Source: Candidatus Caldarchaeum sp.
Lineage (GTDB): Archaea > Thermoproteota > Nitrososphaeria_A > Caldarchaeales > Caldarchaeaceae
Direction of reading: 5' to 3'
NCBI GenBank assembly: GCA_038844785.1
Contig: JAWBRA010000012.1
Coordinates: forward strand, 1-54,437
Length of the DNA: 54,437 bases
Shown: in pieces, positions 1 to 42,246 of the stretch
Layout: the number at the start of each line of letters is the position of its first letter
Position numbering within the stretch: the first letter of the stretch is position 1
The notes under the pieces: model-generated
What the model was told of the DNA's origin: nothing
Seen by the model: the letters and a program-made list of their open reading frames with translations, nothing else
Database searches by the model: none
Translations under genes and position numbers: made by a program

Positions 1-58
1 AAAAACACGCTAACTCCTGAAGAAAATCAAACAAACAATGGCTGGAGGCCAGGCCTGA
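1..58 (+). pseudogene. C-terminal remnant of an IS110/Nop-like gene (runs off window edge)
   Basis: Frame 2 reads KTR*LLKKIKQTMAGGQA* (in-frame TAA at 11-13, TGA at 56-58). This resembles the C-terminus QLLKRIWKTVKERERLEAPA* of 39778-40628, and the same 3' element follows it. Confidence 0.6.
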
Positions 59-206
59 CAGCGGAGAAAAACCAGATGAAGGCCGGGCAATTCAGTACCC
101 AACGCTTTACGGCGATTTATCACGGAATGCACGGTTTTCATCCGGCTTCCCAGACGTTGTCAGACGACGGGCCTCCAGCCAAACCCTCCCCTCTATTTTT
201 CCTTTC
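40..206 (+). ncRNA. Putative structured 3' RNA of IS110/Nop-like element, copy 1
   Basis: 11-bp inverted repeat GGCTGGAGGCC (40-50) / GGCCTCCAGCC (170-180) encloses stem-internal loop-hairpin units. A C/T-rich tail follows. Homologous to 39618-39797 (minus). Confidence 0.6.
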
Positions 207-39187: not shown

Positions 39188-39418
39188 CTACCCCATGACT
39201 ATCAGCGAAACAACCGACGTTATGTTTTCGATTTTTTTGATACGCTGGTTAACTACCTGCTTTAACGCATCCATCGAATCAGCCTCAACCTTAACCACAG
39301 TATCATAGACTCCGTAAACACGCTGCGCGTACTTAACTTCCTTAACTGCCTTAAGTGCGTTCAGAACATCCTCCTCCTTTCCCAGTTTCACGTTCAAGAG
39401 TAGAAAAGCTATTGGCAT
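39188..39418 (-). CDS. Stand-alone Lrp/AsnC ligand-binding (RAM) domain
   Basis: AFLLLNVKLG.E..V, VYGVYD.VVKV; no HTH. Confidence 0.88.
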   Translation of the reverse strand: MPIAFLLLNVKLGKEEDVLNALKAVKEVKYAQRVYGVYDTVVKVEADSMDALKQVVNQRIKKIENITSVVSLIVMG

Positions 39419-39617
39419 GGGTCTGTCCCGATAAAATAACCAATGCCGGTATAAAAATACATAACTTTTTAAAAGTTCCAGGTTCTTTCAATACTTTTGA
39501 ACGGCTTGTCTCTCAGATGAACCCCTCCATAACTGTTCTGGGTGTTTAGGACGTCAAGCCAGACAAAGCTCATCCCACAGATTAGAACCATCTACGAGCA
39601 CAGTATACAATCTTCTG

Positions 39618-39797
39618 GAAGGAAAAAATAAGGGGAGAGTTGGCTGGAGGCAACCAACCAGAACAACATCTAAGAACACCCCTAGGAAAGGCTGACCAAT
39701 ATGTTAAGGACCGTATCCTGTAGGATACGGTTATTTTTATACGGGCCGGCCTTTCCATAGGGGTTTTTCCCTGCTGTTCAGGCCGGCGCCTCCAGCC
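39618..39797 (-). ncRNA. Putative structured 3' RNA of IS110/Nop-like element, copy 2
   Basis: 10-bp clamp 39642-39651 / 39788-39797; 8-bp stem 39745-39752 / 39780-39787 with 8+8 internal loop; 9-bp hairpin 39710-39718 / 39723-39731; C/T-rich tail. Overlaps the stop codon at 39778. Confidence 0.65.
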
Positions 39798-40628
39798 TTT
39801 CCCGTTCCTTCACAGTCTTCCAGATTCTCTTTAGCAGTTGTTCTTCGTCCCTTGCTTTGTAGTGAGCGTTGTTTAGAACAGCTGTTGTCAGCCTTGAAAG
39901 CGCGTATCTCGCCGTTTTGCTATAGATTTTATTGACTCCCTGACTTTGAATAATCCGAAGAACTTTCTGAGACATCTGTAAAACCTTGTCCTTTCTATGT
40001 AAGGCATTATCTCTGCCAGGGCCTGCCTTGCAATCAGATAGTTGTCGCCAGTTATTCCAAGCTCCTCCACCACCTTTTTGAAGTATGGGTATCTTTTCTC
40101 TGCCTCAGAGACAATCGACGAAGCCATCTCCATCATAGATTCTTCAACAACCTTCACGGACTTCATGAGAATCATCCTCTCAGCATCCTGCAGGGCCTTA
40201 GCCCTGTTCAGGAAGCTTGCATGCACTCTTTGCGAACTTCGGAAAGCCGTCGTAAGCCGTCGCATAACCAAATAGTCTTCATCAACTTCTCTAAACCACT
40301 TTGGGTCTATAGCCATCATCGTTCTGATGTCATTCCTAGAGGTCTTTGAAAGCCCAAGCTCCTCACGCTTCTCGGCCATCACCGTCATTCTCCGAAGGTA
40401 GAAAACCCTAACACCACGCCTGAGAAGCTCTACAAAGCCATCTGTAAGCTCCACGGGAATAACATCCACGTAGAGCTCGTCAGCGTGCTCTGCTGGAATA
40501 TCGGTTATCCGGCGGACTCGGCTGAAGTTTTCGCCATCGGTGCTGTAAGTGTGGAAGTTCTCCTCAGTTTTCCTGCCACGTTTCTTGCTAGCAAGCCTAT
40601 GTATGTCAGCGAAAAACCTTCCTCCCAC
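39778..40628 (-). mobile_element. Divergent IS110-like RuvC(DEDD)/coiled-coil/Nop-like protein gene, frameshifted (~283 aa if repaired)
   Basis: FADIH, LYVD, KTSRND (D-D-KTxxxD pattern), RRLT..FR coiled coil, LAEIMPY...LRKFFGLF (Transposase_20/Nop-like). Adding one G in the AGGG run at ~39938-39941 joins ORFs 39888-40628 and 39778-39975. Confidence 0.7.
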
Positions 40629-40630
40629 TC

Positions 40631-40661
40631 TCCCGAGAGGTTTATAAGCCTCTTTTCGGGA
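40631..40661. promoter_or_regulatory. Imperfect palindrome centred on a TATA box
   Basis: TCCCGAGAGG-TTTATAAG-CCTCTTTTCGGGA, lying between the IS110-like start codon and the large structured region. Confidence 0.6.
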
Positions 40662-40672
40662 TATCTGTCATC

Positions 40673-41330
40673 TTAACTCCTCCCTCCCTTTTTCAGGAGG
40701 CCTGAGCCTTGTCGGGGGCTGGCGGCCTTCCACACCAGCCTCCGCTCCCCTGTCGTTTTATGCGCCGGGGAGCAGGCTTCAGCCACCTGTAAGCCCGGTG
40801 GCTTGGCTTGGGAGGAGCGGCTCATACCCCTCCCCATGTAGAGGTTGGGGAGGGCGGCCTGTGAGGCCGTGGAAAACCCCCTCAAGCCAAGCCACCAGAC
40901 CGTGGGTGAGGGTATATCTTCGGAAGCCTCTGAACGTTATCCTGCGTCTTCGTGTCTCCAACATCCATCCACAAACCCTCTCAAACACCCCCATGGTGTC
41001 TGAGAAACATAAGTGGAATGGATGTGGAGAACGTCGTCCAGCATTGTCCAGACAGCCTTCATACGTCGTCTGTCTCCCTACCGCACGTCCGCCAACCCAG
41101 TGGCCGCGCCAAGGCCCAGTTTCCAGCCAAACCCTCCCCCGCCACCCCACAGCATTTAGAAAGGGGTGGCCGCCTTCTACGGCGGGTTGGGTGAGGGTTT
41201 GTTTTTGGCGGAGTTTTCCTATGCGTGTTCGCGGGGACGACTCTATGTTTTCACACCCCCTCACGCCTGGAGGGGATGGCCTCAGGGCTTCATCACGGGA
41301 CAATCGCCCCGCTCATTACATGGTTGTTCA
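40673..41330. ncRNA. Candidate large structured non-coding RNA (strand unresolved)
   Basis: GC-rich, with no protein-like ORF. Many helices: 40797-40810/40883-40896 (14 bp perfect), 40828-36/40846-54, 40744-50/40767-73, 40961-68/41018-25, 41088-95/41205-12. Confidence 0.55.
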
Positions 41331-41471
41331 ACCCACATGGATTTAAGCAGATAGGTGGTGTTGTCTGTAGCGTCCGGACAACGCTTTAAACATACCCGAT
41401 AAAGGAGATTACATAGGTGTTGTTAGGGGAGATATAACATTATAGCGGGATGGAGGCTGAGAACACCAAAC

Positions 41472-41696
41472 ATGTATAAGCCGTTGTTCTATTTAGAGGC
41501 TAACGACGGGAGAGAGGTTAGAATAGCCTTATGGGTTGAGGACGGAACACCACATTTCAGCTATATGGAATATGAGGAGCCTCTGTTTATTCCTTCAGGC
41601 AGTCAGCCACAATATGATAAGGGAGAATGGTATTGTAGAAAATGCCGTCAAACATTCAAAAACAGGGATAAACGCCCAACCGCAACAGAACATTAA
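41472..41696 (+). CDS. Small hypothetical protein with C-terminal CxxC (WYCRKC); possibly a degraded gene
   Basis: 74-aa ORF; homologous remnants at 3094-3150 and 2920-2963 show it belongs to a repeated family. Confidence 0.55.
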   Translation: MYKPLFYLEANDGREVRIALWVEDGTPHFSYMEYEEPLFIPSGSQPQYDKGEWYCRKCRQTFKNRDKRPTATEH

Positions 41697-41883
41697 GGAA
41701 AAAACCAAGAAGAAAGAAATACAAACCAACCATCCAATATTATGGTTAAGCGGTCGCTCCAATAGGCTGAGCTATGTGTTTCTCGTCCTCTATGCCTTTG
41801 GGTTTGAAGCCGTCTTAACACCTGAAACCTCTCTGCGGGGCCTAACAGCCTGTTCTTAAGCCGCCCTAAAATATGTTAAAGGC

Positions 41884-42246
41884 TTATCCTAATCTGTATC
41901 CGCAGAAAAAGCATACAGCCGCTCCAACCTCGTTTAAGGCGTGGCAGCTGGGGCAGTGGAAAGACGTTACAAGCCTAAGCTCCTCCCGTTTTCGCGGTTT
42001 TTCTTCACCTACTGAAGGCATGCAAACCAGAGTCTCAACCTTTACGACGTTGGGAAGCTTTCCAACAGCCTCGTAGACCTTGTGTGAAAGGTCTTTTAAA
42101 CTGTCTGCCGTCATCACCAACACAGCATCGTAGCGTCCGAACACGCTGTGAGCCATCATCACGCCCGGCAGGCTTCGTGAAGCAACAACCTGATCAGAAG
42201 TGCCTGGCAGGGTTTGGACAAGAACGTAGGCAATTAATTTAGTCAT
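41884..42246 (-). CDS. Lrp/AsnC ligand-binding domain plus zinc ribbon
   Basis: AYVLVQT.PG, SVFGRYDAV, then CPSCH...VCFFCG. Confidence 0.85.
   Translation of the reverse strand: MTKLIAYVLVQTLPGTSDQVVASRSLPGVMMAHSVFGRYDAVLVMTADSLKDLSHKVYEAVGKLPNVVKVETLVCMPSVGEEKPRKREELRLVTSFHCPSCHALNEVGAAVCFFCGYRLG

Follow-up and report, generated by a model that had tools for sequence, protein, structure and literature searches.

Two variable segments of a 3'-overlapping RNA match the empty insertion site of a seemingly RNA-programmed mobile element in Caldarchaeales

A 54,437-nt contig of Candidatus Caldarchaeum sp. (JAWBRA010000012.1 of assembly GCA_038844785.1; here the window, positions 1 to 54,437) carries on its minus strand an inserted block of 2.41 kb (39460 to 41869) that looks like a selfish mobile element of Caldarchaeales archaea, seemingly programmed by RNA. 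The element encodes a protein that, by its predicted fold and sequence profile, belongs with the TIGR-TasR nucleases and IS110 recombinases, and a structured RNA that begins within the last codons of the protein gene. We show that two 11-nt segments of this RNA, which flank its apical hairpin and vary between copies, match the two halves of the element's own uninterrupted insertion site in four independent cases, and we consider it very probable that the RNA recognises that empty site. A short guide RNA at the 3' end of a divergent IS110-like or TIGR-Tas-like gene had been proposed in a preliminary description of the sequence; that proposal is upheld here, with changes to the structure of the RNA and to the place of its guides.

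Results

The guides and the insertion site

The genes that flank the window element are adjacent in three relatives (G007:C3, G004:C1 and G005:C7), which lack the whole block. Comparison of the window junctions base by base with the empty site of G007 (L013) identified a 4-nt A/T core at the right-end junction (39456 to 39459) and a second copy of it at the left-end junction (41870 to 41873), neither assigned to a strand; the repeat is readable as up to 6 nt (39454-39459 and 41868-41873). Guide 1, the 11-nt segment 5' of the apical hairpin (39732 to 39742, minus strand), matches the right-end flank and core, being identical to plus-strand positions 39449-39459 (11/11), and as RNA would pair with the other DNA strand. 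Guide 2, on the far side of the hairpin (39698 to 39709, minus strand; its 11 nt can be read in two frames that are offset by one base), matches the left-end core and flank, positions 39698-39708 being the reverse complement of plus-strand 41870-41880 at 10 of 11 positions.

Three further insertions could be compared with an empty site in the same manner. For the 1.51-kb insert at locus L067 of genome G009, whose empty site is in G012, guide 1 matched at 10/11 and guide 2 at 9/11 positions, the two core mismatches being readable as G-T wobbles. The copy on contig C53 of the window's own genome gave 11/11 and 10/11 against the empty site in G007:C44, and locus L077 of G008 gave 10/11 for each guide against the empty site in G009. 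In these last two cases the guide 2 match is an independent test, because the site had been located from guide 1 and homology alone. Across the four elements, which come from three genomes, 81 of 88 guide positions match the empty site, with mismatches falling mostly at the first base of a guide. The arrangement has the same orientation in every case: guide 2 reads in the same sense as the upstream half-site and guide 1 is complementary to the downstream half, such that two segments with box C/D-like frames address opposite strands, as assigned from the four empty sites. The guides overlap by the four bases of the A/T core and together define an 18-bp site. The core is present at both junctions, as 4-6 nt in the window element and 3 nt in L067.

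A background rate was obtained from a control set of 37 loci with a well-defined apical hairpin, for which the flank was taken as 1.5 kb downstream. An exact 10-mer of the 5' loop strand was present in the downstream flank at seven of the 37 loci (two of them orthologous) as compared to 12 among 1326 pairs of mismatched RNA and flank; with exact 11-mers this became 3/37 and 3/1326. A test of whether loop sequences vary with insertion sites had been proposed at the outset; the segments that flank the apical hairpin track the site in the four cases above. For six tested copies whose core frame is clear, the own genome contained no intact predicted site at 0-1 mismatch, and a genome-wide 11-mer search with the variable segments gave, besides the copies themselves, matches at chance level.

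Structure and conservation of the guide RNA

The guide RNA gene, consisting of a long hairpin and a T-run tail, was placed at 39619 to 39797 on the minus strand by structure, DNA comparison and a covariance model. Its hairpin of ~155 nt spans 39797 to 39642, beginning in the last codons of the protein gene, whose stop codon (39778-39780) falls within the RNA structure; the sequence strings quoted in the preliminary description are present here, though on the minus strand. On that strand, a basal clamp (helix 1, with 97.7% of cells paired) joins a 10-nt 5' arm at 39788 to 39797, which overlaps the last codons, to its 10-nt 3' partner at 39642 to 39651, and the fold has an apical hairpin of 9 bp with a 4-nt loop at 39710 to 39731, between the guides. 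The T-run tail (39619 to 39631, minus strand) is conserved in all subfamilies and is presumably an archaeal terminator. The minimum free energy (MFE) of a 201-nt stretch was -105.2 kcal/mol as compared to -60.0 +/- 4.6 kcal/mol for 200 shuffles (z -9.9), none of which was as good.

The MFE structure is one long imperfect hairpin and not the two tandem stem/loop units that had been described, and RNAalifold applied to 17 own-genome copies also yields the long hairpin. The local stem of the first of those units had no covariation, was 67% paired and was equalled by 330 of 500 shuffles, in an alignment fitted to the rival long hairpin. The loop of 8+8 nt in that unit, which had been stressed in the preliminary description, is conserved and not variable, the guides being those beside the apical hairpin. 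Only a single programmable loop was seen, so the RNA is not a full two-loop bridge RNA.

A covariance model built from the 17 full own-genome RNA copies detected the RNA in 20 of 61 sampled genomes of the order (15 of the 41 high-quality genomes) with up to 35 matches per genome and ~300 RNA copies in the order as a whole. There were 41 matches in the own genome, some of which are the antisense image of the same hairpin. Covariation was measured on 73 model-aligned matches from ~20 genomes, representing 70 distinct rows with some antisense images included. In the distinct rows 94.4% of cells were paired and 21 of 26 pairs had changed on both sides; none of 500 shuffles reached any of five covariation measures, and controls with slid partners were 34-54% paired. 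The 53 distinct sense rows alone were 95.1% paired. Strong covariation of the long hairpin across homologous 3' regions is hence the outcome of a check that had been proposed at the outset. Sense copies scored 172 bits with the model and antisense images ~72 bits, and many of the pairs are G-U. Because of this difference of ~100 bits and the many G-U pairs, we assign the structure to an RNA on the strand of the gene.

Within subfamilies the only hypervariable parts of the RNA are the two segments beside the apical hairpin. A search for two 11-nt windows with identical 3-nt frames on both sides, in which no typed motif was used, detected in several subfamilies the pattern AUG(A/U), 11 nt, ACG(U/A), hairpin, AUG(A/U), 11 nt, ACG(U/A), a layout in the order box C, guide, box D', hairpin, box C', guide, box D. 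An order of box, guide, loop and box is described as common to tigRNAs, the loops of bridge RNAs and C/D small RNAs (sRNAs) by Faure et al. (PMC12045711). In subfamilies with clear frames, the two guides end in four bases that are mutually complementary and consist of A/T only, the resulting core being TATT, TAAA, TTAA, TTTA or ATAT according to subfamily. Each gene copy has a single guide unit, with no tandem array between 38500 and 43000 of the window.

A second copy of the guide RNA, from another subfamily, was observed at the contig start on the plus strand (window 40-204), where it scores 142 bits with the model. The 5' variable segment of this copy is identical to that of the copies on contigs C3 and C47, while the 3' segment differs.

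Transcripts of the family were detected in a hot-spring metatranscriptome. Run X3 contained 348 reads of 92-99% identity with the first mate nearly always on the plus strand; in the usual stranded libraries, plus-strand first mates signify minus-strand RNA. The reads cover the open reading frame (ORF), both arms of the hairpin and the start of a GC-rich module upstream of the gene, with a depth over the 3' part of this module (75-91) above that of most of the ORF. Sixteen reads bridge the hairpin arms but skip or differ in the variable centre.

The protein gene and its family

The first 246 codons of the protein gene (39888 to 40628, minus strand) run from a GTG start at 40628 and encode a RuvC-like domain, a coiled coil and most of a Nop-like domain. 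The C-terminal 65 codons are in a different frame (39778 to 39975, minus strand), as seen by comparison with an intact paralogue (L002:1354-2256), and the gene is split by a single-base frameshift in a G-run near 39936-39942. The gene of ~283 aa in the preliminary description is recovered only with read-through of this one frameshift, the uninterrupted ORF being of 246 aa. Because the lesion is a one-base shift in a G-run, the window copy is probably a pseudogene or else reflects a homopolymer error in the assembly.

No Pfam or NCBIfam family matched the 246-aa ORF and nothing relevant was found for either ORF piece, nor did Pfam return anything relevant in 32 of 32 homologues. All of 71 homologues are annotated as 'hypothetical', none with a precomputed Pfam domain, and they derive from Caldarchaeum-type or 'Nitrososphaerota' metagenome-assembled genomes (MAGs) of hot springs, with one exception labelled Thermofilaceae. 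An exhaustive profile search of 1.84 billion representatives detected only 193 proteins at E up to 0.001; named members that were looked up among 10 distant clusters were again from thermophilic Nitrososphaerota or Thaumarchaeota MAGs. Residues D24, H26, D47, G48, D66, D71, K111 and D116 are invariant in the close alignment of 32 homologues. In a distant alignment, also of 32 homologues, invariance is seen for R104, K111 and D116, and conservation of 90% or more for D24 and D71.

Structure prediction and a wider profile provided the relationships that family searches did not. The intact paralogue on contig C14 was predicted by AlphaFold2 (pLDDT 87.7, pTM 0.82) with a RuvC and a Nop fold, and the top Foldseek match was TIGR-TasR (9mty_A; E 1.3e-6, TM 0.58/0.60) followed by IS621 and ISCro4. 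VIA-align scored TasR at Z 15.9 (246 aligned residues, root-mean-square deviation 3.2), ISCro4 at 14.6 and IS621 at 14.2-14.3 (both aligned from residue 17-19 onward), TasH at 12.2-12.8 for the Nop part only, and Nop5/56/58-type proteins at 7.1-8.6 (7.1 for 3pla). The three kinds of protein against which a structural check had been suggested (TasR, IS621 and Nop5) were therefore all matched. A profile of the 32 distant homologues ranked solved structures in a similar way, with TasR at E 1.5e-11, IS621 at 5e-4 and ISCro4 at 6e-3; this wider profile was needed, as that of the close homologues gave only coiled-coil noise against the Protein Data Bank (PDB). The profile alignment to IS621 ends just before the serine segment, whereas TasR aligns through the equivalent short, variable loop, and the near-invariant Tyr253 of the family is aligned to a Trp in TasR. 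There is no invariant or near-invariant Ser in the 32 close and 32 distant homologues. Weak matches to PF01548 occur in 5 of the 32 distant homologues (best E 0.0098), while PF02371, the canonical Transposase_20, is absent from both sets of 32 proteins and from the own genome.

An N-terminal DEDD-type RuvC-like domain is apparent in the fold alignment, with D24, D71 and D116 conserved, and Foldseek, VIA-align and the profile all point to a Nop-domain effector with RuvC of the TasR type. The C-terminal Tnp domain with catalytic serine of IS110 was not found, and the conserved acidic residues differ from the inactive RuvC-like domain of Nop5. The labels 'Transposase_20/Nop-like' and 'RuvC/DEDD' that the protein had been given from its sequence receive no backing from Pfam or NCBIfam but agree with the fold and the wider profile, and the idea of a divergent protein of IS110/TIGR-Tas type is borne out by both the fold search and the profile search of solved structures. 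Based on the rankings by fold and profile and on the lack of a conserved Ser, we place the predicted protein in the TasR/IS110 superfamily, on the side of TasR; its RuvC site looks intact and it lacks a recombinase nucleophile.

Copies, ends and modules of the element

The own genome (1.74 Mb in 57 contigs) contains 25 six-frame matches to the protein, many of them at contig ends, in at least two subfamilies with ~30% identity between them. DNA comparison delimits a homology block common to the copies from 39619 to 40660, on either side of which there are other repeated modules. In the window the order of modules on the RNA strand is left end, antisense zinc-ribbon gene module, GC-rich leader, protein gene, guide RNA and a 159-nt right-end module. 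The minimal form is of ~1.5 kb, as in L067 (1.51 kb), where the sole gene is that of this family, and the window copy of 2.4 kb has extra modules. The distance from the RNA to the right end varies between elements from 158 to 501 nt.

The right-end module (39460 to 39618, minus strand) was defined by DNA comparison among copies. Its last ~70 nt recur at C35:13095-13171, with the similarity stopping at an identical terminal base. A repeat of ~70-100 nt within it (39527-39618) directly follows the T-run of the RNA in four copies and is also present at C7:64179-64283 without the element, again with a similar T-run before it; it may represent an independent small repeat or a preferred neighbour.

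At the other side of the gene, nucleotide comparison of copies revealed a conserved 5' segment (40610 to 40660, minus strand) with a small hairpin and a TATA-like loop, whose nucleotide identity is still ~88% when protein subfamilies with a residue identity of only ~30% are compared, such that conservation upstream is at the nucleotide and not the protein level. An out-of-frame ATG (40671) starts an upstream ORF of nine codons, the ATG being one base out of frame and overlapping a TGA, and this arrangement is found in at least five copies (C12, C14, C9, C53 and C6). Judged from sequence, the segment with its upstream ORF could act in translational control or as a promoter. An N-terminal frameshift was considered as a cause of the upstream conservation and dropped; most homologues begin just before the first RuvC strand, which fits the GTG at 40628.

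A GC-rich module of 733 nt (40661-41393, minus strand) lies between the left-end region and the protein gene. It has 55-66% GC in surroundings of 43-50%, folds at -350 kcal/mol (z -8.4, 20 shuffles) and has at least 10 copies in the genome, upstream of both protein subfamilies, with the C9 copy being 92% identical. No Rfam family matched this module or the guide RNA (window at the gathering threshold; 39300-42000 at E up to 10). A group II intron comprising the GC-rich module and the 3' hairpin was rejected, there being no Rfam match and the ORF not being a reverse transcriptase. Further upstream and divergent from the nuclease gene is a plus-strand gene (41472-41696, within a module at 41384-41775) for a 74-aa protein with a C-terminal CxxC...CPNC zinc ribbon. 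A tblastn search detected 51 matching pieces on >25 contigs, many with intact ORFs; the gene is upstream of most nuclease copies yet also found alone, and its product could be a partner of the nuclease or a separate repeat.

Some loci were set aside when cases were counted. At C33 a guide 1 match lies 879 nt downstream at a break in synteny with a host-like gene between, and the locus was counted as one-sided. C35 has a right-end module as in the window, but its flank is unlike the guides of the adjacent RNA copy. L075 (G008:C2:513146-525331), where the insert is of 3.7 kb and the intergenic region of relatives is too diverged, was left uncounted; its 5' segment is also found upstream, at the left boundary of the insert.

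Discussion

The matches between guides and empty sites are compatible with several mechanisms, of which the one we favour, at about even chances, is a TasR-type RNA-guided nuclease element that promotes its own homing or retention. Transcription of the gene would run on into an RNA with a hairpin of 155-180 nt, extending from the last codons to the T-run, and the guides in the internal loop near the hairpin tip would address opposite DNA strands of the 18-bp site. The predicted ribonucleoprotein (RNP) would recognise the uninterrupted site, and insertion would split this site and thereby protect the filled copy. Cutting of the empty site by the RNP would then lead to repair that copies or retains the element, a form of homing akin to a natural gene drive. 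We favour a nuclease because a recombinase serine is missing from the protein and no donor loop was found in the RNA. Points for this reading are the closest fold and profile, the intact-looking RuvC site, the single programmable loop and the variable content of the element, as is an RNA in which, for the two mapped elements, no segment matches the joined ends above chance. Another is the left end of L067, which falls within sequence that is internal to five sister copies. These copies (L065, L066 and L068-L070 of G009) share 22 nt upstream of the L067 start point, of which the last 7 nt resemble the left half-site of L067 (6/7); the 22-nt stretch may be a trace of microhomology-mediated insertion.

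A number of observations weigh against the nuclease reading. It leaves unexplained how copies spread to new sites with new guides, and a single genome of 1.7 Mb holds ~25 protein matches and ~30 RNA copies, which differ in their sites and in their guides. Each subfamily has a constant core, present at both junctions, and the insertions at C12 and C35 share a right end to the last base, two features that fit recombination better. The ORFs are broken in both the window copy and L067. Among the 17 full RNA copies of the own genome, 13 have no downstream guide 1 match on their contig, with four matching at no more than one mismatch in 11; many of the non-matching copies are at contig ends or in nested repeats. 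No exact 10-mer was found in 30 of the 37 control loci, and L075 and L042 (G032:C5) have the opposite arrangement, in which the reverse complement of the 3' segment is downstream. Finally, since the metatranscriptome reads match at 92-99%, they show sense-strand transcription at the level of the family, and are not evidence for the window copy or for the ends of the RNA; runs X1 and X2 of the same study gave no reads.

The main rival is RNA-guided insertion, in which the protein and RNA insert the element directly by means of a single 'half-bridge' loop and without a serine nucleophile, and which we regard as distinctly less than probable though a serious contender. The chemistry could be strand transfer of the RuvC/RNase H type, or the donor ends could be recognised by the protein or by other parts of the RNA. 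Direct insertion would account for the many differently guided copies in one genome, for the constancy of the core within subfamilies and at both junctions and for the right-end module whose terminal base is shared by C12 and C35. No other gene is present in the minimal element, the protein fold is only slightly further from IS621 and ISCro4 (Z 14.2-14.6) than from TasR (15.9), and the guides overlap on the core as do those of IS110, unlike TIGR spacers, which are described as unlikely to overlap (PMC12045711). The missing conserved Ser counts against insertion; the loop that holds the serine in IS621 is here short, variable and TasR-like in alignment. Comparison of the RNA with the joined ends, which was restricted to two elements with both ends mapped and end positions uncertain by 1-3 nt, gave one match of at least 8 nt per element where 0.9-1.4 were expected. 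Moreover, the position of the left end of L067 and the varying content (158-501 nt) between RNA and right end are odd for an element with fixed ends. The broader proposal that this is a self-contained, naturally reprogrammed 'half-bridge' insertion element intermediate between TIGR-Tas nucleases and IS110 bridge recombinases is likewise tentative. If true, 1.5-2.4 kb of DNA would be placed into an 18-bp site, with no serine nucleophile, by a thermophilic RuvC-Nop protein of 285 aa and one RNA whose two 11-nt guides overlap; the half-bridge reading implies either a new strand-transfer chemistry or a self-retargeting natural gene drive.

Three further explanations are less likely. It is improbable that the element is simply a stem-loop TIGR-Tas system of the ordinary sort, which would serve in defence or gene regulation, with guides aimed at foreign or regulatory DNA, and would ride on repeats with incidental flank matches. 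TasR is indeed the best structural and profile match, stem-loop tigRNAs can sit within the 3' end of a tas gene (10.64898/2026.09.09.750476) and the guides of most copies are unmatched on their own contig or elsewhere in the genome, but four of four usable empty sites were matched on both halves in the same orientation, there is one unit per gene with no array, and the whole cassette is missing from the orthologous loci of relatives. Less probable again, to the point of being very unlikely, is a box C/D-like RNP that guides 2'-O-methylation or a similar process on RNA, the Nop-like protein standing in for Nop5. Points in its favour are the 11-nt spacing and the motif and guide order, which resemble archaeal C/D sRNAs (in part PMC12045711), and the Nop domain, which resembles Nop5/56/58 (Z 7.1-8.6); against this, the acidic RuvC residues are conserved, unlike those of the dead Nop5 domain (PMC11213020), the guides match intergenic DNA insertion sites and similarity to TasR and IS621 is far above that to Nop5. 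We attach an equally small probability to a plain insertion sequence without an RNA guide, in which the terminal palindrome would serve as a DNA signal of the kind found at IS200/IS605 ends. A long imperfect palindrome near one end is what such an element might have, as is the small hairpin close to where the gene begins, but the palindrome is 158-501 nt inside the element and not at its tip, many pairs are G-U, the sense orientation scores 100 bits higher, sense-strand transcripts were detected and the variable segments track the flanks.

The element family accounts for a repeat that fragments Caldarchaeales assemblies, and for a 'putative transposon' linked in 2012 to tRNA gene disruption. 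The element itself was noted at that time, and we found no paper that describes its guide. The family provides a natural and testable example of self-addressing, in which an element encodes the sequence of its empty site, and a very compact, presumably thermostable candidate effector, free of a protospacer-adjacent motif, with an 18-bp target that can be read from two 11-nt RNA segments.

Comparison with known systems

OMEGA systems (TnpB/IscB) are selfish elements with an RNA-guided RuvC nuclease that acts against the element-free site and an RNA that overlaps the 3' end of the gene. The element described here shares the overlap of RNA and gene and presumably the targeting of its own empty site, but belongs to an unrelated fold family. 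In OMEGA the guide is taken from the outside flank and there is a separate TnpA transposase, whereas here both guides are internal and no such transposase is present.

The 1,868-bp 'insertion sequence' of Candidatus Caldiarchaeum subterraneum described by Sugahara et al. in 2012 (PMC3293823) is of the same element family. These authors reported seven copies of a putative transposable element with an 813-bp ORF 'b', which they took to encode a DNA-binding or recombination protein. Their a3b4 copy (~503.4-503.5 kb) adjoins one of our RNA matches (G009:C1:503579-503760), and L068 (G009:C1 ~503.4-503.8 kb) adjoins a tRNA-Thr(CGU) gene in the region of the tRNA-Thr disruption reported there. The available text of that article contains no link to IS110 or TasR and no 3' RNA or guides, and proposes a plasmid (pNOB8-type) origin from dinucleotide bias. 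We found no paper that links the element family to guide RNAs or to guides for its own site, although the supplements on TIGR-Tas (20,096 tas loci) and those of Vaysset et al. may list its proteins. The available part of the TIGRFinder preprint (10.64898/2026.09.09.750476) describes stem-loop tigRNAs inside tas genes and makes no mention of homing or self-targeting.

Archaeal box C/D small RNPs (Nop5-fibrillarin-L7Ae, PDB 3pla) resemble this system in the Nop domain, the order of boxes and guides and a guide length of ~11-12 nt. They differ in that the acidic RuvC residues are kept here, that the targets are DNA and that structural similarity is much weaker (Z 7.1).

As in the present element, the RNA of the IS1111 group is encoded on the 3' side of its gene, and the core of IS621 is a CT dinucleotide whereas the core here is of 4 nt and A/T. 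Like the IS110/IS1111 elements (IS621 and ISCro4; PDB 8wt6, 8wt9 and 9t56; PMC12045711, PMC11213020 and PMC13396178), the element is mobile and combines a RuvC-plus-Nop-type protein with a structured RNA encoded in cis; both have a target loop with left and right guides on opposite strands and a shared core on both sides of the insert. Differences are that here there is no PF01548 or PF02371 match at threshold and no conserved serine segment, that there is one programmable loop with no donor loop found in the two mapped elements, and that guides vary between copies in one genome.

The closest resemblance is to stem-loop TIGR-Tas systems with TasR (Faure et al. 2025, PMC12045711). The proteins are similar in size (~285 versus 292 aa), and have the same architecture of RuvC, coiled coil and Nop domain, and TasR is the best match by fold and profile in our searches; both systems have two short box-framed guides around a hairpin that address opposite strands of an 18-bp site, and in both the guide unit may overlap the 3' end of the gene (10.64898/2026.09.09.750476). 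TIGR-Tas has arrays where there is one unit per gene here, and abutting spacers of 9 nt where the guides here are of 11 nt and overlap by 4 nt. The unit here is buried in a hairpin of 155-180 nt, the cassette is a multi-copy insertion with guides that name its own site, and the RuvC residues are retained, in contrast to the two catalytically dead stem-loop TasR structures of that preprint. A relationship between IS110, Nop5 and TIGR proteins was set out by Vaysset et al. (PMC11213020) and Faure et al. (PMC12045711). A shared origin of TIGR-Tas nucleases and IS110 bridge recombinases with box C/D small nucleolar RNPs has been proposed. The family described here sits between TIGR-Tas and IS110, combining a TasR-like protein on a mobile element with overlapping guides and a core like those of IS110, in archaea.

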